NCBI RefSeq assembly: GCF_003334385.1
Contig: NZ_QOWN01000002.1
Length of the DNA stretch: 64,000 bases
Reading direction: 5' to 3' (one strand)
Origin: Escherichia coli
GTDB lineage: Bacteria > Pseudomonadota > Gammaproteobacteria > Enterobacterales > Enterobacteriaceae
Shown here: one piece after another, positions 3,530 to 34,496 of the stretch
Position numbering within the stretch: position 1 is the stretch's first letter
Layout: each line of letters opens with the position of its first letter
Made by a program: the position numbers and the translations under genes
The notes under the pieces: model-generated
Seen by the model: the letters and a program-made list of their open reading frames with translations, nothing else
Databases searched by the model: none
What the model was told of the DNA's origin: nothing

Positions 3530-5824
3530 TCAGAGCGCCTGGGTAAAGGTACGTGAAATAACATCCTGTTGCTGTTCACGGGTCAGTGCGTTGAAGCGCA
3601 CGGCGTAGCCAGAGACACGGATTGTCAGGTTAGGATATTTTTCCGGGTGCTCGATGGCATCCAGCAGCATTTCCCGATTCATTACGTTGACGTTGAGGTG
3701 TTGACCGCCTTCGACATCCGCTTCGTGGTGGAAATACCCATCCAGCAGGCCGACAAGGTTGGTTTTACGTACTGGATCTTCTTTGCCCAGCGCCGCAGGA
3801 ACGATTGAGAAGGTGTACGAGATCCCATCTTTGGCGTAGGTGAACGGCAGTTTCGCCACCGACGTCAATGAGGCCACGGCACCTTTGCGGTCACGACCAT
3901 GCATCGGGTTAGCGCCCGGCGCGAACGGTGTTCCGGCGCGACGACCGTCCGGCGTATTACCGGTTTTCTGGCCGTACACCACGTTAGAAGTGATAGTCAG
4001 AATCGACTGGGTAGGGACGGCGTTGCGATAGGTTGGCAGCGCTTTAATTTTCTTCATAAAGCGTTCAACCAGGTCGCAGGCAATGCTGTCTACGCGCTCG
4101 TCGTTGTTGCCGTACTGCGGATATTCACCGTCGATTTCAAAGTCCACCACCAGGCCGTTTTCGTCACGGATTGGTTTCACGCGGGCATATTTGATGGCAG
4201 ACAGGGAGTCCGTCGCCACCGACAGGCCCGCGATGCCGCATGCCATAGTGCGATAGACATCACGATCGTGCAGCGCCATCAGCGAAGCTTCGTAGCTGTA
4301 CTTGTCGTGCATGTAGTGAATGATATTCAGCGCGCTGATGTACTGCACCGCCAGCCAGTCCATGAAGTGATCGAGGCTGTCCATCACTTTGTCGTAATCC
4401 AGCACGTCGTCCATCAGCGGTGCTGTTTTCGGCCCGACCTGAATCTTCAGCTTCTCGTCCACCCCGCCGTTAATTGCGTAGAGCAGCGTTTTCGCCAGGT
4501 TAGCGCGTGCACCAAAGAACTGCATTTGCTTACCAATCACCATTGGGCTGACGCAGCAGGCAATCGCGTAATCGTCGCTGTTGAAGTCAGTACGCATCAG
4601 ATCGTCATTTTCATACTGCAAGGAAGAGGTGACGATCGACACCTGCGCGGCATATTTTTTGAAGGCAATCGGTAATTCTTCCGACCAAAGAATGGTCAGG
4701 TTAGGTTCCGGTGCCGGCCCCATAGTGTGCAGGGTGTGCAAATAGCGGAAGGAGTTTTTGGTCACCAGCGTACGACCGTCCAGCCCCATCCCGCCGATCA
4801 CTTCCGTCGCCCAGATTGGGTCGCCGGAGAACAGCGAATCAAATTCCGGTGTACGCAGGAAGCGTACCATACGGATCTTCATGATGAAGTGATCGATCAG
4901 TTCCTGTGCCTGCTGCTCATTGAGTACGCCAGCTTTAAAGTCGCGCTCAATGTAGATATCGAGGAACGATGCCGTGCGGCCCAGCGACATCGCGCCGCCA
5001 TTTTGCGATTTCACTGCCGCCAGATAAGCGAAGTAGAGCCACTGCACCGCTTCCTGCGCATTCTGCGCCGGGCGAGAGATATCAAAGCCATATTTCGCCG
5101 CCATTTCCTGAATCTGCAACAGCGCATGACGATGCTCTGCCAGCTCCTCACGCAGACGGATGGTGGCTTCCAGATCCTCGCCTTTTTCCAGACGAGACTG
5201 GAGATCGGCAAATTGCAGTTCGCGTTCACGTACCAGATAACTGATGCCATACAGCGCTACGCGGCGATAGTCACCGATAATGCGCCCACGGCCATAGCCA
5301 TCTGGTAAACCGGTCAGCACGCCAGATTTACGGCAGCGCAGCATATCCGGTGAGTAAACATCAAATACGCCCTGGTTATGGGTTTTACGCAGATCGGTAA
5401 ACAGATATTCAAATTCACTGTCCATTTCTCGGCCATAGGCGTGGAATGAACTTTTAATCATATTAATGCCACCGAACGGGTGTAGCGCACGTTTCAACGG
5501 CGCATCCGTTTGCAGGCCAACAATTTTTTCCAGCGGCTGGTTAATATATCCCGCATCATGAGCGGTAATTGTGGTGGCAATATTGGTATCGAAATCAACC
5601 GGCGCGTGGGTTGCATTTTCGATACGGATGCCTTCCATTACTTTTTCCCACAATTCCGTGGTGGCAGGCGTCGCTTCGGCGAGGAAAGATTCATCGCCTT
5701 CATACGGTGTATAGTTATGTTGAATAAAATCGCGGACATTAATTTCGTTTTTCCAGTCCGTACCTTTAAAGCCAAGCCATGCGTCGGCGTACAGCTTATC
5801 GCTGGTATCAATATCTACCTTCAT
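3530..5824 (-). CDS. tdcE: 2-ketobutyrate/pyruvate formate-lyase TdcE (glycyl radical enzyme), 764 aa
   Basis: 764-aa ORF ending ...[29 protein letters not shown], the glycyl-radical C-terminal motif of PFL-type enzymes; tdc operon context. Confidence 0.95.
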
Positions 5825-5857
5825 GAAAAATAATCTCTCTACAATACTTCAACTAAA

Positions 5858-7066
5858 TTATGCAAATTCTGCGGGCGCGTTAACTTTGCCTAAATGAATG
5901 GCATCCAAAGCAATCATTTTTTCTTCGTTAGTCGGAATAACGGCACAAATGACACGCGCATTTTCACTGGAAACAATTCGCTCACCACAGGAGTTAGAGC
6001 GATTATTCATTTCTGTATCAATCTCTAAGCCTAATACAGCCAAATGTTCCATGACCAGACGACGAATTAAGCTTGAATTCTCTCCTATTCCGCCGGTGAA
6101 TATAATTCCATCCAGGCGACGTAATGAAGCTGCGTGTCCGGCAATATGACGGGCAATTCGGTGAACAAAGGTTTTAATTGCCAGTTGCGCGCGTTCGTGA
6201 CCTTCATGCCAGGCTTTTTCCAGAACACGTAAATCCGAAGAAAGACCGGAAATACCTAATAATCCCGACTCTTTATTCACTACGCGTTCCAGGTCACCCA
6301 GGCTCTGGTTGGTTTGGCTGGCGACCCAGGACATCGCACCAAAGTCGACATCGCCACTGCGGGTACCCATCATCAAGCCTTCCAGCGGCGTCATTCCCAT
6401 TGAGGTATCAACACTCTGACCGTTGCGAACCGCGCAGATTGACGCGCCATTGCCAAGATGCGCCACAACCAGGCCGGAGTCATCTTCCGCCAGATTCAGC
6501 AGCGAATGTGCGCGCTGGGAAACATAGCGGTGCGACGTGCCGTGGAAACCATAACGGCGTACACCTAACTCTTCATAATATTTCCACGGCAGGCCGTATA
6601 AATAAGCTTCCGGAGCCATCGTCTGGTGGAAACTGGTATCAAATACCGCCACCTGAGTTACGCCCGGAAATAATTGCTGCGCCGATTCAATACCACTTAA
6701 ATTGGCGTAATTATGCAGGGGTGCCAGTGGAGAAACGCGACGGATATTATCAATGACTTCATCGGTAATAATGGCGGACTCGGTAAAAATACTGCCGCCG
6801 TGAGCGATGCGGTGGCCAATTAAGGCCACACTGTCATTTAAATTCCGTTTTTCCAGTTCAAATGCAATTGCCTTCAATGCACCTTCGTAGCTGTGGTGAG
6901 CCAGCGGTGCTGGCTCTCCCCCATTTACGGATAAGAATGCATTTTCCGAGTTAATACCGTCGGCAATACCTGACATTAATACTTCACAGTCGCTGGCATC
7001 GAGCACGGAAAACTTAATCGAAGACGAACCACAGTTAATAACCAAAACAACCGGAAATTCATTCAT
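5858..7066 (-). CDS. tdcD: Propionate/acetate kinase TdcD, 402 aa
   Basis: [23 protein letters not shown]... acetate-kinase family N-terminus; start trimmed 4 codons from the track ORF. Confidence 0.9.
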
Positions 7067-9532: not shown

Positions 9533-10471
9533 CTAACCAACTTCTATTAATTGCCTTCGTCTACACCCATTATAAGATGAATACTCTTTGGCTAATTCCA
9601 CCAAAACCGATGCTGCTTTTTTAATACGATAATTTTTCGACCATACCGCGGCATATTGTGCCACAGGTAATGTTTCTTCAACCGGAATAGTAATAAATTG
9701 ATTAGAACCAAAAGGTGACGTCATATCACAAGGAATTACAGTTAAGAAATCAGCATTGAGAACAAGATTATAAATTGTCACGACTGAGTCGGTTTTAACG
9801 ATGTTTTCAATACTGATGCCATTTCTTTGTAACGTAGTAAGCAGTTCGCTGTAGTACCCCATATTAGTTTGTGGCAACACCCACTGTTCGTTCTTCAACG
9901 ACTCCAGCGTGGTGGTGCCGGTGCATGTTCGGGACTTACTGGCTACCAGCACAAACTCGGACTCGAACAGCGGCTCAACATGTAAATCCTGAAGCTTCAT
10001 TTCTGCACTTAACGTACCAATCGCAAAATCCAGTCGACCGTCGCGGATTGCCGGTAAGAACGAAGACAGTTGCGCTTCATACATAGAAACCTGCGCTTTC
10101 GGGAACACCTCTTTGAACTTGTTGATCATCCCTGACATAAAAGTAAAACCAATCAATGAAGGAAAACCAAATGAGACTTCCACCACCGCCTCAGAAGACA
10201 TACCGCTTATCTCATTAACCATATTTTTCATTTCACGGGTAATGGATTCGGAACGGGAGAGTAACAATTGACCGGCAGGTGTTAATGTTACACCGGTATT
10301 TTTCCGCACCACTAATTCCACACCAAAATAATCTTCAATATCGTTAATGATTTTACTGACGGCCGGTTGAGTTAACCCTAATTCTTTTGCAGCCGAGCCG
10401 ATAGAACCACTTCTAATGACTTCCTGAAAGACTACCAGGTGCTGCGTTTTCGGAAGAAGAATAGTGCTCAT
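9533..10471 (-). CDS. tdcA: LysR-type transcriptional activator TdcA, 312 aa
   Basis: N-terminal HTH (…GSIGSAAKELGLTQPAVSKII…) typical of LysR regulators; first gene of the tdc operon. Confidence 0.95.
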   Translation of the reverse strand: MSTILLPKTQHLVVFQEVIRSGSIGSAAKELGLTQPAVSKIINDIEDYFGVELVVRKNTGVTLTPAGQLLLSRSESITREMKNMVNEISGMSSEAVVEVSFGFPSLIGFTFMSGMINKFKEVFPKAQVSMYEAQLSSFLPAIRDGRLDFAIGTLSAEMKLQDLHVEPLFESEFVLVASKSRTCTGTTTLESLKNEQWVLPQTNMGYYSELLTTLQRNGISIENIVKTDSVVTIYNLVLNADFLTVIPCDMTSPFGSNQFITIPVEETLPVAQYAAVWSKNYRIKKAASVLVELAKEYSSYNGCRRRQLIEVG

Positions 10472-10647
10472 AACGACCTACGTTAATTACCTCATTGACG
10501 GCATGAAGTGTATCAAAATGAAATGAACAGGATATGTGCGACCACTCACAAATTAACTTTCAATACTTTCCAGAGTATCGTTGTTACAATTAAATACCTT
10601 TAAATATCAACAAGTTAAAGTATAAAAATCAGCATAAACCCTGATTT
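10472..10647. promoter_or_regulatory. Divergent tdcA / tdcR control region (tdc promoter; CRP, IHF and FNR dependent by established knowledge)
   Basis: 176-bp AT-rich gap between divergent tdcA and tdcR; individual binding sites not resolved by eye. Confidence 0.45.
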
Positions 10648-10659
10648 TTGTCAAAAAAA

Positions 10660-11004
10660 ATGACGGGGATAACCATATTTTATGGCGATAACATCATTCG
10701 TTATGTGGTTAATACAAAAAAGGGGCTGAGACCATATTTCAAGCAATTACCGGATAATTACCAAGCAAAATTTGAGTTAAATTTAATGAGCAAGTTCTCA
10801 AATTTTATTATAAATAAACCATTTTCAGTGATAAATAATGCGGCATGTCACATTTTTTCACGCTATTTGTTGGAGAACAAACATTTATTTTATCAATATT
10901 TTAAAATTTCGAATACATTTATTGATCATCTCGAACAATTGATTAACGTCAACTTTTTCTCTTCTGACAGGACGTCATTTTGTGAATGCAATCGTTTTCC
11001 ATAA
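10660..11004 (+). CDS. tdcR: Threonine dehydratase operon activator TdcR (small, AT-rich gene)
   Basis: ORF divergent from tdcA reading MTGITIFYGDNIIRYVVNTKKG...; very low GC; start choice (10648 vs 10660) uncertain. Confidence 0.6.
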   Translation: MTGITIFYGDNIIRYVVNTKKGLRPYFKQLPDNYQAKFELNLMSKFSNFIINKPFSVINNAACHIFSRYLLENKHLFYQYFKISNTFIDHLEQLINVNFFSSDRTSFCECNRFP

Positions 11005-11259
11005 ATTCTTCTCCCCTCATAGGCGACGAATAGCATTTTGTGTTGAGGATCACAAAACGAATAATTGCTGATCGCCGCGATAAGGTCAGACAAAGACAAC
11101 AAGGGAAATTTTCACAGAGCTTTTGATCGGCGTAGGCCACAGAATGTTGCTTCGTTTACTGTAACGCCGGGTAAATGAGCGTTTTTTGATAGTGCGAAAG
11201 AACCCTGCGAGGAAAATAAGCATCTATTATTGTTTGTCATGATGACAAGGCAGGCATCA

Positions 11260-11799
11260 ATGAAAGGCTTCCCAATTGCGCATATTTTTCACCCTTCAAT
11301 CCCGCCAATGCACGCAGTGGTTAACAATCACAATAGAAATATTGATTATTGGACGGTAAAAAGAAAGTTTGCAGAAATTGTCTCCACCAATGACGTTAAT
11401 AAAATTTACAGTATAAGTAATGAACTGCGGAGAGTATTATCTGCAATAACTGCATTGAATTTCTATCATGGCGATGTTCCTTCTGTCATGATCCGAATCC
11501 AACCGGAAAATATGAGTCCATTCATTATAGATATTTCTACAGGAGAACATGATGATTATATCATACAAACATTAGATGTAGGCACTTTTGCACCTTTTGG
11601 TGAACAATGTACTTGCTCAGCCGTCAATAAAAAAGAGCTGGAATGTATTAAGGAGACGATTTCTAAGTATTGTGCAAAATTCACCCGAAAAGAAGCCATC
11701 TTAACCCCCCTTGTGCACTTTAATAAAACCAGCATTACTTCAGATTGTTGGCAAATTCTCTTTTTTTCACCCGATCATTTTAATAATGATTTTTATTGA
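11260..11799 (+). CDS. yhaB: Uncharacterised protein YhaB
   Basis: AT-rich ORF downstream of tdcR; start placed at MKGFPIAHIF... (track ORF begins 10 codons earlier); no recognisable domain. Confidence 0.7.
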   Translation: MKGFPIAHIFHPSIPPMHAVVNNHNRNIDYWTVKRKFAEIVSTNDVNKIYSISNELRRVLSAITALNFYHGDVPSVMIRIQPENMSPFIIDISTGEHDDYIIQTLDVGTFAPFGEQCTCSAVNKKELECIKETISKYCAKFTRKEAILTPLVHFNKTSITSDCWQILFFSPDHFNNDFY

Positions 11800-11820
11800 T
11801 TATTTATAAAGGATAAAATA

Positions 11821-13008
11821 ATGTTCCCTGTTTCATCAATTGGTAATGATATTAGTAGTGATTTAGTCCGTCGAAAAATGAATGACCTTCCTGAAAGCCC
11901 AACAGGAAATAACCTCGAAGCACTAGCACCAGGTATAGAAAAACTAAAACAGACCTCTATTGAAATGGTCACTTTACTTAACACGTTACAACCTGGTGGA
12001 AAATGCATTATCACTGGTGATTTTCAAAAAGAATTAGCGTACTTACAAAATGTAATTCTTTATAATGCCTCGTCTCTTCGTCTGGATTTTTTAGGTTATA
12101 ACGCCCAAATTATTCAACGATCGGACAATACTTGTGAACTTACCATTAATGAACCGTTAAAAAACCAGGAAATATCCACAGGTAATATCAATATTAATTG
12201 CCCATTAAAAGATATTTACAATGAAATCAGGAGGTTAAACGTAATTTTTAGTTGTGGGACTGGAGATATCGTTGATCTATCCTCTCTGGACTTACGTAAT
12301 GTCGATTTAGATTATTATGATTTCACAGATAAACATATGGCTAATACTATTTTAAATCCTTTTAAATTGAATTCAACAAATTTTACTAATGCCAACATGT
12401 TTCAGGTTAATTTTGTTAGTTCAACACAAAACGCCACAATCTCCTGGGATTATTTACTAAAAATAACGCCTGTTTTAATAAGCATTAGCGATATGTATTC
12501 TGAAGAAAAAATCAAGTTTGTCGAAAGTTGTTTAAATGAGCCTGGAGACATTACCGAAGAACAATTAAAAATTATGAGATTTGCAATTATAAAATCTATA
12601 CCAAGGGCAACTCTTACAGATAAATTAGAAAATGAATTAACAAAAGAAATATATAAAAGCTCATCGAAAATCATCAATTGCTTGAACAGAATTAAATTAC
12701 CAGAGATGAAAGAATTCTCATCAGAAAAAATATATGATTACATCGATATAATCATTGAAGATTATGAAAATATCAAAGAAAATGCTTATCTGGTCGTCCC
12801 CCAAATTAATTATACTATGGATTTAAACATAGAAGACTCTAGCTCAGAAGAGTTACTTTCAGATAATACCCTCGAGAAAGACGAAAATTCTCCGGACAAT
12901 GGCTTTGAGGTCGGGGAATATAACACATATGAAGCATATAACTCAGAGAAGCAATATTTTACCAGAGAGGACTATACGTATGATTACGACCTTTTAAATG
13001 CAATATAG
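11821..13008 (+). CDS. yhaC: Uncharacterised pentapeptide-repeat protein YhaC, 395 aa
   Basis: 395-aa AT-rich ORF; middle region shows 5-residue periodicity (SLDLR NVDLD YYDFT ... NTILN PFKLN STNFT NANMF QVNFV); acidic Tyr/Glu/Asp-rich C-terminus. Confidence 0.8.
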   Translation: MFPVSSIGNDISSDLVRRKMNDLPESPTGNNLEALAPGIEKLKQTSIEMVTLLNTLQPGGKCIITGDFQKELAYLQNVILYNASSLRLDFLGYNAQIIQRSDNTCELTINEPLKNQEISTGNININCPLKDIYNEIRRLNVIFSCGTGDIVDLSSLDLRNVDLDYYDFTDKHMANTILNPFKLNSTNFTNANMFQVNFVSSTQNATISWDYLLKITPVLISISDMYSEEKIKFVESCLNEPGDITEEQLKIMRFAIIKSIPRATLTDKLENELTKEIYKSSSKIINCLNRIKLPEMKEFSSEKIYDYIDIIIEDYENIKENAYLVVPQINYTMDLNIEDSSSEELLSDNTLEKDENSPDNGFEVGEYNTYEAYNSEKQYFTREDYTYDYDLLNAI

Positions 13009-13127
13009 ACTTAATAACTTCTTACAAAGTCTATTATTAATACCGTAGATATTTATTCATCTTACCCTGTGCACCAAAAGCAAAAACTCACTGACGCGGG
13101 TTTGAAACTGATGGCAACCGCAAAAAT

Positions 13128-13225
13128 GCCTGATGCGCTACGCTTATCAGGCCTACGCCATCTCTGCAATATATTGAATTTGCGTGCTTTTGTAGGCAGG
13201 ATAAGGCGTTCACGCCGCATCCGGC
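13128..13225. repeat. REP/BIME palindromic elements (two inverted REP units)
   Basis: gcctgatgcgctacgcttatcaggcctac and taggcaggataaggcgttcacgccgcatccggca, the canonical E. coli REP consensus in opposite orientations. Confidence 0.6.
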
Positions 13226-13254
13226 ATGAATAAAGCGCACTCAACAATCTGAAA

Positions 13255-13621
13255 CCCGCCGGAACGGTTTATTACGTACATCAGGTAAAACTGACCGATA
13301 AGCCGCTTTCTTTTGGGTATAGTGTCGTGGACAGTCATTCATCTTTCTGCCCCTCCAAAAGTAAAAACCCGCCGAAGCGGGTTTTTACGTAAAACAGGTG
13401 AAACTGACCGATAAGCCGCTTTCTTTTGGGTATAGTGTCGTGGACAGTCATTCATCTTTCTGCCCCTCCAAAAGCAAAAACCCGCCGAAGCGGGTTTTTA
13501 CGTAAACCAGGTGAAACTGACCGATAAGCCGCTTTCTTTTGGGTATAGCGTCGTGGACAGTCATTCATCTTTCTGCCCCTCCAAAAGCAAAAACCCGCCG
13601 AAGCGGGTTTTTACGTAAATC
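13255..13621. repeat. About 3.25 direct tandem copies of a 113-bp unit downstream of rnpB; each carries a terminator-like hairpin and a copy of the rnpB 3' end
   Basis: cccgccgaagcggg recurs at 13255, 13368, 13481 and 13594 (period 113); each unit repeats caggtgaaactgaccgataagccg...gtcgtggacagtcattcatct, the 3' terminal rnpB sequence. Confidence 0.85.
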
Positions 13622-13998
<377 letters not shown>

Positions 13999-33136: not shown

Positions 33137-33721
33137 ATGAATAAAGTTACAAAAACAGCTATTGCGGGCTTACTTGCGCTTTTCGCAGGTAATGCCGCTG
33201 CAACCGATGGTGAAATAGTTTTTGATGGCGAGATTTTAAAATCCGCTTGTGAAATCAATGACTCTGATAAGAAAATTGAAGTTGCTCTTGGTCACTATAA
33301 TGCCGAACAGTTTCGTAATATTGGCGAGCGTAGCCCAAAAATTCCATTCACTATTCCTTTAGTTAACTGCCCAATGACTGGGTGGGAGCACGATAACGGC
33401 AACGTTGAAGCGTCTTTCCGTCTATGGCTGGAAACGCGAGATAATGGCACCGTCCCTAACTTCCCTAATCTGGCAAAAGTAGGCTCTTTTGCTGGCATAG
33501 CGGCAACAGGTGTGGGTATCCGTATTGACGATGCGGAAAGCGGAAACATTATGCCACTGAATGCTATGGGCAATGATAACACGGTTTATCAGATCCCGGC
33601 GGAATCCAATGGTATTGTCAATGTTGACCTCATCGCTTACTACGTATCAACCGTAGTTCCATCAGAAATCACCCCAGGGGAAGCAGACGCTATCGTTAAC
33701 GTAACGCTGGATTACCGTTAA
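33137..33721 (+). CDS. yraH: Fimbrial major subunit-like protein YraH, 194 aa
   Basis: Signal peptide MNKVTKTAIAGLLALFAGNAAA then fimbrial subunit-like sequence with C-terminal aromatic residue. Confidence 0.9.
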   Translation: MNKVTKTAIAGLLALFAGNAAATDGEIVFDGEILKSACEINDSDKKIEVALGHYNAEQFRNIGERSPKIPFTIPLVNCPMTGWEHDNGNVEASFRLWLETRDNGTVPNFPNLAKVGSFAGIAATGVGIRIDDAESGNIMPLNAMGNDNTVYQIPAESNGIVNVDLIAYYVSTVVPSEITPGEADAIVNVTLDYR

Positions 33722-33726
33722 TACGT

Positions 33727-33765
33727 TAGGGCGTTATCTGACCTGTCAGATAACGCCCTTTTCCT
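33727..33765 (+). terminator. Rho-independent terminator/attenuator after yraH
   Basis: agggcgttatctga-cctg-tcagataacgccct perfect hairpin followed by TTTTCC. Confidence 0.6.
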
Positions 33766-33800
33766 TCCTCTTTCTCGTTGTATCAGGTTGAAAAATAACT

Positions 33801-34496
33801 ATGTCAAAACGAACATTCGCGGTGATATTAACCTTGTTGTGTAGCTTCTGTATTGGCCAGGCGCTTGCAGGAGGAATCGTTTTACAGCGAACGCGAGTGA
33901 TCTATGATGCCAGCCGCAAAGAGGCTGCGTTACCTGTCGCAAACAAAGGCGCAGAAACGCCTTATTTACTGCAATCATGGGTAGATAATATAGATGGTAA
34001 AAGCCGTGCCCCATTTATTATAACCCCACCGCTATTTCGTCTTGAGGCTGGCGATGACTCATCACTGCGAATTATTAAAACAGCTGATAACCTGCCTGAA
34101 AATAAAGAGTCGCTGTTCTACATTAATGTTCGTGCCATTCCAGCAAAGAAAAAATCAGATGATGTTAATGCTAACGAGTTGACGCTGGTATTTAAAACAC
34201 GGATCAAAATGTTTTATCGCCCCGCACACCTGAAGGGACGGGTAAACGATGCGTGGAAATCACTGGAATTTAAACGTAGTGACCATTCACTCAATATATA
34301 TAACCCAACTGAATATTACGTCGTATTTGCCGGACTGGCAGTCGATAAAACCGATCTCACAAGCAAAATTGAATATATCGCGCCCGGAGAACATAAACAG
34401 TTACCACTTCCTGCATCTGGCGGAAAGAACGTGAAATGGGCTGCGATCAATGATTATGGCGGCAGTTCCGGGACAGAAACTCGTCCACTGCAATAA
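33801..34496 (+). CDS. yraI: Periplasmic fimbrial chaperone YraI (PapD-like), 231 aa
   Basis: Signal peptide plus PapD-family chaperone-like sequence; position between subunit and usher. Confidence 0.9.

Follow-up and report, generated by a model that had tools for sequence, protein, structure and literature searches.

Regarded as a stretch of DNA, the locus described here has its closest counterparts in the H-NS-silenced promoter islands, or xenogeneic islets, of Escherichia coli K-12, a set marked by AT-rich DNA, by occupancy with H-NS, and by genes of predicted foreign origin; the yhaC locus is itself a member and does not differ from the set (PMC3661553). Table 1 of that study places promoter islands, with predicted foreign genes, at tdcA/tdcR and within yhaC. 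The yhaC island is H-NS-bound in every ChIP study compared there, the tdcA/tdcR island in two of them. At the protein level, the reference group is formed by the pentapeptide-repeat proteins (PF00805/PF13599; Rfr fold, Np275/Np276, Rfr32), with which YhaC shares tandem A(D/N)LXX-like units, a central L/F/M, and D/N at position i-1. Qnr and MfpA are almost wholly β-helix, with ~8-10 coils in ~180-220 aa. Together with McbG and AlbG, they resemble YhaC in repeat type and net acidic charge. A further group comprises orphans linked to type III secretion systems (T3SS). YjbI (“SopA family protein”), IcaR/YjgL, and IcaT/YfdF are, like yhaC, AT-rich (about 35% GC), Escherichia-restricted, silent in K-12, and absent from the CFT073 (B2) clade (PMC9241512 for icaR/icaT).

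We compared with these systems the tdc–rnpB region of E. coli, including the tdcR–yhaB–yhaC stretch, within a 64-kb window, i.e., the whole stretch of DNA that was analysed. By RefSeq annotation, its plus strand carries tdcR (10786-11004, 72 aa), yhaB (11260-11799, 179 aa), and yhaC (11821-13008, 395 aa); rnpB lies on the minus strand (13622-13998). An earlier note on this DNA had begun tdcR at 10648, the TTG with which the longest possible ORF (118 aa) opens; the annotated start is at 10786. yhaB and yhaC are probably co-transcribed, because yhaC starts 21 nt past the end of yhaB and is preceded by an AAGGA Shine-Dalgarno sequence. The tdcR–yhaB–yhaC stretch is real but fairly ordinary and known. 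Neither its H-NS/low-GC status nor its pentapeptide character is new, the label “pentapeptide repeats-related” having been attached to yhaC in the older K-12 annotation. The present analysis shows the base composition, the restricted distribution, the constraint on coding, the homology of the repeat module, and the decay in the population; binding by H-NS and the sites for CRP and FNR come from the literature, and the β-helix, its binding role, and conditional expression are predicted. To the promoter-island set of PMC3661553, this work adds the precise bounds of the E. coli-specific segment, the extent to which its alleles have diverged, and the way in which it decays.

Across 10472-13008, the GC fraction is 0.333 against a mean of 0.506 for the 64 kb, making this the lowest-GC 2.5-kb stretch in the window (~4 sd below the mean; sd 0.044). 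GC3 amounts to 0.315 in tdcR, 0.311 in yhaB, and 0.280 in yhaC, compared with 0.439 in tdcB and 0.534 in garK. Among the 48 ORFs with 150 aa or more (mean 0.542, sd 0.086), yhaC and yhaB occupy the bottom GC3 ranks with z-scores of ~ -3 and -2.6, and yhaC is also least adapted in codon usage to the pooled window genes. The marked AT richness claimed in the earlier note is thus confirmed by the GC and codon profile, and published data report both H-NS binding and a predicted foreign origin (PMC3661553), in line with its expectation of horizontally acquired, H-NS-silenced material. The tdcA-tdcR divergent intergenic region (10472-10785, GC 0.29-0.34) corresponds to entry 3265097_477 tdcA(-)/tdcR(+) of that study, and the yhaC promoter island (entry 3266734_706 yhaC(+), column H = A) to 12500-13206 in the 3′ half of yhaC, as converted from U00096.2 by an inferred conversion via the FNR-site coordinate. 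Within the island, AT content peaks in this promoter-island stretch (GC fraction 0.285-0.315). Precisely where tdcA starts, identity to a divergent E. coli allele falls from 98% to 91-94%.

In a word search of 5.8 billion proteins, yhaB and yhaC match solely Escherichia/Shigella; YhaC forms a single full-length cluster among 1.84 billion representative proteins, and the only matches in 100,044 species genomes are two mis-binned E. coli contigs. No phage record matched yhaBC, plasmid matches are confined to chromosome-sized records or fragments filed as plasmids, and neither protein has a homologue outside Escherichia apart from repeat-level pentapeptide matches. The E. coli-specific segment spans ~1.9 kb (11108-13043, plus strand) and carries yhaB and yhaC. 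In E. ruysiae (L013, L015) and Escherichia sp. E4930 (L016), homology to the window stops at ~11066-11107 and restarts in the 113-bp rnpB repeat units, and blastn (word 7, E ≤ 1e-3) finds no yhaBC remnants in these genomes. The ends of the segment show no repeats, and it holds no mobility genes. Of the three-gene island originally proposed, only yhaB–yhaC (about 11108-13043) is E. coli-specific, whereas tdcR and the upstream spacer are common to other Escherichia. Instead of a gain in E. coli, the difference may reflect a clean deletion in the sister species.

tdcR is annotated as the tdc operon activator (NCBIfam NF008507, E 4.5e-50), and its homologues are confined to the genus Escherichia (E. 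coli, Shigella, E. ruysiae, Escherichia sp.). The TdcR protein evolves nearly neutrally: dN/dS is ~1 among E. coli alleles and 0.44-0.98 when species are compared, at dS under flank values. Upstream of yhaB, an FNR ChIP site lies within the tdcR ORF (10934-10957; PMC1802558), followed by a CRP site, ttTGTGTtgaggaTCACAaaa (11037-11057), with an in vitro CRP footprint assigned to yhaB (PMC12871828); RpoS-holoenzyme binding is also among the upstream sites. The CRP site is kept in E. ruysiae and Escherichia sp. E4930, both of which lack yhaBC, and would thus be older than the yhaBC insertion.

Within E. coli, conservation of yhaBC is not uniform across the core genome: the full region is present in 4318 of 5426 complete genomes (~80%). 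One deletion junction is shared by 1062 of the 5426, including the B2 strain CFT073, and in the clade to which this strain belongs only a two-deletion yhaBC remnant is left. Insertions of IS1, IS3, and IS621 are also seen at the region, and the reduced-genome strain DGF-298 lacks it (PMC10652928). Loss in ~20% of genomes together with the deletion in DGF-298 demonstrates that yhaB and yhaC are dispensable. In the literature, both genes receive incidental mentions only, with no partner, phenotype, or expression condition, in keeping with the earlier view that nothing in the sequence establishes a function.

YhaB is an orphan with its own Pfam family (PF27690/UCP004546). Its N-terminal 107 residues are conserved, while several of the compared allele clusters carry frameshifts in the C-terminal half. 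As previously noted, no recognisable motif is present: neither Pfam nor the PDB yields a match at E ≤ 10, and none in NCBIfam is significant. PADLOC likewise gives nothing significant, with a marginal match to MkoA (E 0.011), and AlphaFold2 reaches a pLDDT of 35. A minimal kinase of the Bud32/Rio/OspG type was considered and rejected, as the sole match, TIGR03724, scores 16 bits (E 0.005) against a cut-off of 125, the histidine of “YHGD” varies between H, Q, and K among alleles, and there is no N at +5.

YhaC (NCBIfam “YhaC family” NF007262, 890 bits) has a pI of 4.4 and appears to be a soluble acidic multidomain protein with neither a transmembrane segment nor a Sec signal. By its predicted domain boundaries, residues 1-147 would form a unique N-terminal domain, residues 148-215 ~3 coils of a right-handed quadrilateral β-helix, residues 216-323 a helical region, and the C-terminal end a disordered tail, acidic and rich in Tyr, that closes with a conserved motif. 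The repeat module (12262-12465, plus strand; residues 148-215) comprises ~10 clear units and a cap, and includes the pentapeptides SLDLR, NVDLD, YYDFT, DKHMA, NTILN, PFKLN, STNFT, NANMF, and QVNFV. Every fifth position is hydrophobic in 10 of 11 units, a level attained by 0.1% of shuffled sequences (p ~0.001). Ten A(D/N)LXX-like units occupy residues 151-200, all with L/F/M in the centre and seven with D/N at i-1; they contain the run of at least eight contiguous tandem A(D/N)LXX pentapeptides with a hydrophobic centre in one register that we applied as the family criterion. Invariance among alleles follows the same register (5, 7, 10, 3, and 2 of 10 for i-2, i-1, i, i+1, and i+2), so that i and i-2 are invariant at 15 of 20 positions versus 5 of 20 for i+1 and i+2, which fits inward-facing i and i-2 residues.

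Profile searches point in the same direction. Against a library of 1.84 billion proteins, the YhaC profile retrieves ~35 long proteins (E 2.6e-10 to 1e-3); the matches to pentapeptide proteins cover residues 140-215 only, and all seven that were sampled are Pfam Pentapeptide proteins (E ≤ 0.001). The top single domains score 35.9 and 35.3 bits, compared with -3 to +1.4 bits for reversed or shuffled controls. Conversely, the Pfam Pentapeptide models (PF00805, PF13599, PF13576) remain below significance on YhaC (Pentapeptide_4, E 0.14; Pentapeptide, E 6.4), as does the best pentapeptide model in NCBIfam (Alr5209, E 0.12), and a PDB profile search returns Np275/Np276 at E 0.05. AlphaFold2 yields a pLDDT of ~36, and of 21-29 over the repeats (140-210), where no strands are predicted. 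YhaC thus differs from typical pentapeptide-repeat proteins in having ~10-13 units in 395 aa and missing the Pfam thresholds, in frequent substitution of V, L, Y, K, or F for the small i-2 residue of the consensus, and in N- and C-terminal domains without relatives; its fold is predicted. At the level of sequence, periodicity, profile matches, and controls together bear out the repeat run described earlier, and we regard residues 148-215 as a real but divergent pentapeptide-repeat module.

The acidic Tyr/Glu/Asp-rich tail was likewise described correctly. Residues 324-395 (12790-13005, plus strand) have a pI of 4.05, with 18 D/E, 3 K/R, and 8 Y, and end in YTYDYDLLN(A/E)I. The tail is the most variable part of the protein: invariant columns make up 33% of it, compared with 52% of the repeat module and 60-65% of the N-terminal and helical parts, and its dN/dS against the divergent allele is the highest of all YhaC regions (0.56). 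The C-terminal motif is nevertheless conserved throughout the alignment.

Pentapeptide repeats combined with acidic charge raise the question of whether YhaC could be a DNA mimic of the Qnr/MfpA/McbG type, shielding DNA gyrase or topoisomerase IV against quinolones or a toxin, and one paper attaches the GO label “response to DNA damage” to yhaC. The architecture makes this highly improbable. Qnr, MfpA, McbG, and AlbG are nearly all β-helix, dimeric, and of a length that mimics B-DNA, whereas YhaC would have ~3 coils between large non-repeat domains, with ~80% of the protein outside the repeats. It is this restriction of ~10-13 units to a 395-aa multidomain protein that argues against such mimicry. 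Moreover, no NCBIfam model of Qnr, MfpA, or McbG matched YhaC, and the PDB search returned no Qnr, MfpA, or AlbG chain.

Both genes bear the imprint of protein-level selection. dN/dS is 0.20-0.31 for yhaC and 0.04-0.24 for yhaB, and variation is in excess at third codon positions in both (variable sites by codon position 91/84/152 and 26/21/50, respectively). With dN/dS at 0.2-0.3, yhaB and yhaC are best regarded as real protein-coding genes under weak purifying selection. The 395-codon yhaC ORF is intact in DNA of 28-32% GC and in alleles as low as 66% identical. Synonymous divergence from the same-locus allele reaches a dS of 0.52-0.63 versus 0.07-0.13 in the flanks (about five times). This excess is not a simple mutational effect of AT content or H-NS, because the equally AT-rich tdcR has a low dS; relaxed codon selection in an unexpressed gene could account for part of it. 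In a study of 92 genomes, yhaC also ranks with the leading genes under positive selection (PMC9110714).

These data bear directly on whether yhaBC has any present function. If yhaBC were a relic in decay, or young de novo-like ORFs on their way to loss by drift with residual constraint, this would account for the H-NS silencing, the loss in ~20% of genomes, the IS insertions, and the yhaB frameshifts, as well as for the missing phenotype in the literature and the deletion in DGF-298 (PMC10652928). AlphaFold gave no confident fold for either protein, and “fossil genes” have been proposed for the comparable loci icaR/icaT (PMC9241512). Yet dN/dS persists at 0.2-0.3 over a dS of ~0.6, the yhaC ORF stays open, and the repeats are conserved by register, the centre being invariant in 10 of 10 units versus 5 of 20 exposed positions. 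Since such a combination of intact ORF, sustained dN/dS, and register-specific conservation is not expected from drift alone, we consider a functionless relic doubtful.

A different explanation is suggested by the T3SS-linked orphans. YhaC, perhaps together with YhaB, might be a T3SS substrate, now fossil or cryptic, delivered by ETT2, LEE, or a pINV-like system, whose β-helix and acidic Tyr-rich tail with its DYDLL/YDLL-type motif would engage host proteins. An N-terminal region, pentapeptide repeats, and a C-terminal region form a layout resembling PipB2- and EspX-type effectors. Like these effectors and the T3SS-linked orphans, YhaC has degenerate repeats between terminal regions and lacks a Sec signal, and the missing transmembrane segment, the fast evolution, and the reported positive selection fit as well. 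icaR (yjgL) and icaT (yfdF), K-12 orphans of 35% GC that are absent from B2, are secreted by the Shigella T3SA (PMC9241512). Genomic co-distribution agrees at first sight: inclusion-exclusion on the genomes with the yhaC segment (4313), yjbI (4269), or either (4364) gives 4218 with both, 95 with yhaC only, 51 with yjbI only, and 1062 with neither, and the ETT2 marker ygeH occurs in 3528 of the 4313 yhaC-positive genomes compared with 33 of the ~1113 yhaC-negative ones. However, the co-distribution of yhaC, yjbI, and ygeH amounts to essentially a single phylogenetic event, namely the clade with the B2 strain CFT073, and because an unrelated fimbrial cluster of the window is missing from the same clade too, the co-absence signal is not T3SS-specific.

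Sequence comparison likewise separates YhaC from this group. YhaC and YjbI show repeat-level similarity (27.7% identity over 83 aa), but K-12 YjbI reaches 5 bits with the YhaC profile, tblastn similarity is limited to YhaC residues 121-201, and homology stops at the repeats. The PDB profile search returned no SopA, NleL, or PipB2 chains, and no such effectors are among the 74 YhaC-profile matches. The MxiE box (consensus GTATCGTTTTTTTANAG), which marks the promoters of icaR/icaT-type chromosomal T3SA substrates, is not matched anywhere in the 64-kb window with ≤ 3 mismatches allowed. Furthermore, yhaC is kept in commensals like K-12, in which ETT2 is degenerate. On balance, a role as a type III substrate is unlikely. 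Still more speculative, and at present rather improbable, is the extension that yhaBC, YjbI, and IcaR/IcaT would represent a hidden set of ancient AT-rich backbone cassettes for substrates of a T3SS (ETT2 or a pINV-like ancestor), with deeply divergent alleles maintained by selection through host interaction and with joint purging in the CFT073-including clade; YhaC would then be a new pentapeptide-repeat effector, its YTYDYDLL mimicking eukaryotic sorting or phosphorylation signals.

Deep divergence could also arise from conflict with phages. A two-gene anti-phage or conflict module, e.g., an abortive-infection sensor and its effector in which the variable surface of YhaC would recognise a phage protein, matches the small AT-rich two-gene cassette with its presence/absence polymorphism, the very divergent alleles including mosaic recombinants (P0030), and the reported positive selection. 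One of the pentapeptide matches is fused to a TIR domain (P0140), indicating that such modules occur in immune-type architectures. We nonetheless judge this reading to be quite unlikely, given that PADLOC detects nothing for YhaC, no PHROG match falls below E 0.04, neither YhaB nor YhaC has a recognised enzymatic or effector domain, and no phage phenotype is reported. Moreover, by annotation, the neighbours of yhaBC are metabolic genes and rnpB rather than a defence island.

The reading that we favour, with moderate confidence and on sequence grounds, is that yhaBC represents a foreign-looking, lineage-specific cassette that is silenced by H-NS and decaying, and in which the YhaC repeat scaffold would bind a strain-variable partner. 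The ~1.9-kb cassette would have been inserted into the spacer that separates tdcR from the rnpB terminator repeats, in the ancestor of E. coli after the split from the E. ruysiae-like lineages, and would since have been kept mostly silent by H-NS. It is fast-evolving and in places decaying, as seen in the clade remnant, the IS insertions, and the yhaB frameshifts. The predicted β-helix of YhaC would serve as a rigid binding scaffold, with inward residues fixed and outward residues varying between alleles. YhaC would be made conditionally, once H-NS silencing is lifted, and its partner, which might be a cellular, phage, or host protein, would vary from strain to strain.

yhaB and yhaC are among the remaining uncharacterised genes of the best-studied bacterium, and the options for them are narrowed here. 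Their allelic divergence is unusually deep, and their clade-wide decay parallels the loss of other T3SS-linked orphans. If neither type III secretion nor conflict is involved, yhaBC would be one more H-NS-silenced relic, already catalogued as such. If one of the two applies, a new effector or sensor architecture would be added, and it would become clearer why silenced AT-rich orphans persist in commensal E. coli.

The window covers the tdc-rnpB-gar region of E. coli. Here tdcR (10786-11004, 72 aa), yhaB (11260-11799, 179 aa), and yhaC (11821-13008, 395 aa), all as annotated in RefSeq genomes, are enclosed by tdcA upstream (9533-10471, minus strand) and rnpB downstream (13622-13998, minus strand). 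The earlier note let the AT-rich stretch begin at 10648, which is indeed the TTG of the longest possible tdcR ORF (118 aa) but not the currently annotated start, the ATG at 10786; an older annotation uses the ATG at 10660 (114 aa). GC content is 0.29-0.37 from about 10400 to 13000 and about 0.5 on either side, and no other 2.5-kb stretch of the 64 kb (mean 0.506, sd 0.044) is as low in GC as 10472-13008 (0.333). GC3 amounts to 0.28 in yhaC, 0.31 in yhaB, and 0.32 in tdcR, compared to 0.44 in tdcB and 0.53 in garK. When the 48 non-overlapping ORFs with 150 aa or more are ranked by GC3 (mean 0.542, sd 0.086), yhaC and yhaB come out lowest, and codon adaptation to the pooled genes of the window is lowest in yhaC. 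GC, GC3, and codon adaptation thus bear out the claimed compositional departure from the flanks. A second low-GC3 cluster (0.39-0.40) at 33137-34496 carries genes for a subunit and a chaperone of chaperone-usher fimbriae; it is missing from CFT073, where agaI is directly followed by rsmI.

The reading of the island as foreign, H-NS-silenced DNA is already in print. "Promoter islands" are listed at tdcA/tdcR and within yhaC, both associated with genes predicted to be foreign; the yhaC island is H-NS-bound in all compared ChIP data sets and the tdcA/tdcR island in two (PMC3661553). Promoter-like sites in the island number 17, compared to 12.5 ± 3.7 in shuffled sequences, so there is no excess over what base composition gives. 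The island showed no intrinsic terminator, and searches for non-coding RNAs gave REP-derived matches only, all sub-threshold. Between yhaC and a downstream tandem repeat, a REP/BIME-type element (13125-13236) yields sub-threshold Rfam matches to the REP-derived RNAs ES036 and naRNA4, and probably explains the 9-47 extra BLAST places per genome obtained with the locus query. The tandem repeat itself (13252-13644; 113-bp unit, 3.5 copies, 96% identity) overlaps the 3' end of rnpB, holds a terminator-like hairpin in each unit (AAACCCGCCGAAGCGGGTTTTT), and varies from 1 to about 5 copies across strains and species. Over 10400-13300, the window has no 100% identical counterpart among complete RefSeq genomes. 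Compared with the K-12 strain EC600, six differences occur over 8.9 kb, all within the AT-rich island (10583, 10764, 10919, 12068, 12700, and 12773), and about 6 kb of flanking sequence has none. No synonymous change is among them; the three in yhaC and one of those around tdcR are nonsynonymous.

Comparison with other Escherichia species subdivides the island. In E. ruysiae and Escherichia sp. E4930, tdcR is present and the rnpB repeats come directly next: homology to the window stops at about 11066-11107, just beyond a conserved CRP site (11037-11057), and restarts in the 113-bp repeat units, with no detectable remnant of yhaBC. Because of this gap in the sister species, the island reads as two layers, an older, apparently genus-wide one of tdcR and its upstream spacer, and a younger, E. 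coli-only segment of ~1.9 kb (about 11108-13043) carrying yhaBC. A degenerate fragment of a 113-bp unit directly after the yhaC stop (13044-13100) marks the right edge of this segment. Neither a mobility gene nor a boundary repeat or attachment site was detected for the segment, short chance repeats only. The CRP site corresponds to an in vitro footprint assigned to yhaB (2026 Footprint-seq preprint, PMC12871828); as it is kept in Escherichia species without yhaB, it is older than the gene to which it was assigned. A mutation from gallium-resistance evolution (tdcR/yhaB intergenic, +54) appears to fall inside this site. CRP, FNR, and RpoS-holoenzyme sites upstream of yhaBC have been published, as has an FNR ChIP site within tdcR (10934-10957).

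Outside this genus, yhaBC leaves no trace in the collections covered. Word-based searches of 5.8 billion proteins with YhaC, YhaB, and TdcR returned Escherichia and Shigella only. A scan of one genome per species (100,044) found just two contigs, both of E. coli but wrongly binned, one in a Bacteroides and one in a Collinsella MAG; the scan uses N-terminal peptide patterns, which very divergent relatives could escape, and the exhaustive HMM search described below agrees. These yhaC-bearing contigs (L003 and L004), in MAGs named "uncultured Bacteroides sp." and "Collinsella sp.", look like binning contamination. Phage collections gave no match. Plasmid collections returned only records as large as a chromosome (three, 4.8-4.9 Mb) and a non-mobilizable one of 354 kb, all entered as plasmids.

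Of 5426 complete E. coli genomes, 4318 contain 80% or more of 10400-13300. A further 1062 share a single junction, with yhaB reduced to its first 102 nt and yhaC to 63 nt (12090-12152) plus its final 44 nt. These retained pieces identify the shorter form as a derived remnant produced by two deletions; CFT073, the archetypal B2 strain, carries it. Further, IS1, IS3, and IS621 insertions and yhaB frameshifts occur within E. coli, and the reduced-genome strain DGF-298 lacks the region.

Comparison of the window with five other alleles shows that yhaB and yhaC are genes. Variable sites are distributed over the codon positions as 26/21/50 in yhaB and 91/84/152 in yhaC, and dN/dS is 0.04-0.24 and 0.20-0.31, respectively, compared to 0-0.11 in the flanking tdcB, tdcA, and garK; both genes are therefore under genuine but weak constraint. 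The tail of YhaC is the least constrained part (dN/dS 0.56 against the divergent allele), and in a scan of 92 genomes yhaC was among the 14 genes with the strongest positive-selection signal (PMC9110714). The divergent allele occurs at the same locus in ordinary E. coli and encodes a YhaC 66% and a YhaB 77% identical to those of the window. At the nucleotide level, the locus with this allele is 97-100% identical to the window in tdcB and tdcA but 64-88% from the tdcA start through to the yhaC end, and dS reaches 0.63 in yhaC and 0.52 in yhaB, compared to 0.07-0.13 in the flanks. This allelic dS is similar to that between E. coli and E. ruysiae at garK (0.60) and exceeds that at tdcA (0.36). 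In tdcR, dS is low (0.14-0.17 between species) although the gene is as AT-rich as yhaBC and likewise bound by H-NS; mutation acting generally on AT-rich silenced DNA is therefore not the cause of the divergence. It may instead come from old allelic lineages, from introgression out of unsampled relatives, or from diversifying selection together with relaxed codon constraint. One YhaC protein allele (P0030) is a mosaic of both types.

The annotated activator gene tdcR itself evolves almost neutrally at the protein level. Nonsynonymous to synonymous changes are 10:0 and 13:3 in E. coli, dN/dS is 0.44-0.98 between Escherichia species, and variable sites by codon position are 10/7/3. Moreover, its dS of 0.14-0.17 lies below the values that the same species pair shows at tdcA (0.36) and garK (0.60), and the 72-codon ORF stays open in DNA of 28% GC. 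This suggests that tdcR is constrained at the DNA or RNA level, besides or instead of the protein level.

YhaC has its own NCBIfam family, and K-12 annotation already termed the protein pentapeptide-related. The repeats quoted in the earlier note are found in the sequence, and the module PENTAPEPTIDE can be written in register as VDLSS LDLRN VDLDY YDFTD KHMAN TILNP FKLNS TNFTN ANMFQ VNFVS. In all ten units the centre residue (i) is L, F, or M, and in seven of them D or N comes before it; the hydrophobic pattern at every fifth position over 50 residues is matched by 0.1% of shuffles. Domain-model and structure searches remain below significance: on the repeats, the Pfam models Pentapeptide_4 and Pentapeptide give E 0.14 and E 6.4, no NCBIfam pentapeptide model does better than E 0.12, and a PDB profile search finds Np275/Np276 and designed beta-solenoids only at E 0.05-0.8. 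An exhaustive search of 1.84 billion representative proteins with a profile of 11 YhaC alleles retrieved, besides YhaC and its fragments, about 35 long proteins at E 2.6e-10 to 1e-3, which align to residues 140-215 only, in 3-11 stretches each. All seven sampled matches are Pfam Pentapeptide proteins. When reversed or shuffled, the matched proteins score -3 to +1.4 bits; the match thus depends on direction and register. The best single-domain scores are 35.9 and 35.3 bits in two proteins, one of whose alignments runs on to residue 230 and thereby presumably enters a C-terminal cap.

Conservation follows the same register. Across alleles down to 66% identity, position i is invariant in ten of ten units, i-1 in seven, i-2 in five, i+1 in three, and i+2 in two. 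A quadrilateral beta-helix would produce such a pattern with i and i-2 turned towards its core and with i+1 and i+2 on its surface. AlphaFold2, run on a shallow alignment of the 11 alleles, gives a mean pLDDT of 36 and 21-29 over the repeats. Since it does not confirm the fold, we file residues 148-215 as a module at the sequence level, for which the data support a real, divergent pentapeptide-repeat module with a predicted fold. Of the proposal that YhaC is a pentapeptide-repeat protein, the sequence-level module stands, Pfam significance does not, and the beta-helix stays a prediction.

The protein as a whole has a pI of 4.4 and no transmembrane or signal-like segment. The claimed acidic Tyr/Glu/Asp-rich tail is confirmed: residues 324-395 have a pI of 4.05, contain 18 D/E and 8 Y, and are the least conserved part, ending in the invariant YTYDYDLLN(A/E)I. 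Neither the N-terminal 147 nor the C-terminal 180 residues have relatives in any library searched; the N-terminal domain resembles FolD (PDB 5zf1) at a whole-sequence E of 0.0086 and a domain E of 0.043, a similarity that may be due to chance. Proteins of the Qnr/MfpA type are almost entirely helix. A DNA mimic of this type is therefore an unlikely role for YhaC, which has only about three coils, compared to the near-total helix of Qnr/MfpA, and gave no match to families of that type.

YhaB, described earlier as lacking a recognisable motif, indeed has no Pfam and no PDB match at E 10. A minimal kinase of the Bud32/Rio/OspG type was considered from a TIGR03724 hit (E 0.005; 16 bits, cut-off 125) and a "YHGD...IIDIS" motif. 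It was rejected because the His of "HGD" varies between alleles and nothing else backs the assignment, Pfam and PDB being silent. AlphaFold2 on four alleles gave an unusable model (pLDDT 35). C117, C119, C129, C138, and C163 are invariant in the in-frame alleles (residues 117-163, window about 11608-11748), and the spacing CxC-x9-C-x8-C is a possible metal-binding motif, a candidate backed by no model. PADLOC and PHROGs searches returned nothing significant; with the PADLOC result, there is no positive evidence that yhaBC is a defence system. The literature search found no functional study of yhaB or yhaC.

A tie to type III secretion would place YhaC beside yjgL (icaR) and yfdF (icaT), 35%-GC K-12 orphans that the Shigella type III apparatus accepts as substrates and that B2 lacks (PMC9241512). 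K-12 yjbI (positions 4704-6284 of its locus, L017) is an AT-rich pseudogene annotated "SopA family protein" with degenerate pentapeptide repeats. Either-marker counts from concatenated queries, followed by inclusion-exclusion on genome counts (yhaC segment 4313, yjbI 4269, either 4364), place both loci in 4218 genomes, yhaC only in 95, yjbI only in 51, and neither in 1062, the same number as the yhaBC-remnant genomes. Likewise, the ETT2 regulator gene ygeH is present in 3528 of 4313 yhaC-positive but 33 of ~1113 yhaC-negative genomes. As type III evidence, this co-distribution is suggestive but weak: it essentially reflects a single event in the phylogeny, and the clade concerned, to which the B2 strain CFT073 belongs, also lacks the unrelated fimbrial cluster of the window. 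Moreover, YhaC and YjbI show no homology past the repeats (5 bits), and no MxiE box was found in the 64-kb window. We consider the connection improbable. The remnant clade (1062 genomes, including CFT073) also lacks yjbI and nearly always ygeH, which looks like a joint loss of several AT-rich orphan loci in this lineage.

Earlier work has already placed the locus among promoter islands that bind H-NS and are predicted to be foreign, and yhaBC is listed among young operons of unknown function (PMC12218254). Judged by its sequence, YhaC would be a divergent pentapeptide-repeat-containing protein in a xenogeneic silenced islet; these data do not establish its function, and the corresponding statement of the earlier note stands. 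New here are the boundaries of the E. coli-specific segment, the coding-constraint evidence, the register-specific conservation and controlled profile evidence for the repeat module, and the five-fold dS excess between alleles, together with the two-deletion remnant common to 1062 genomes and the co-loss of yhaBC with yjbI and ETT2. In the best-supported account, yhaBC would be a two-gene cassette specific to its lineage, foreign in appearance, and silenced by H-NS, which still codes for protein but is dispensable and eroding. Flanked by unique domains and an acidic, presumably disordered tail with a conserved terminal motif, the short beta-helical pentapeptide module of YhaC may serve as a rigid scaffold for binding, its core fixed and its surface variable; both the binding role and conditional expression are inferred.
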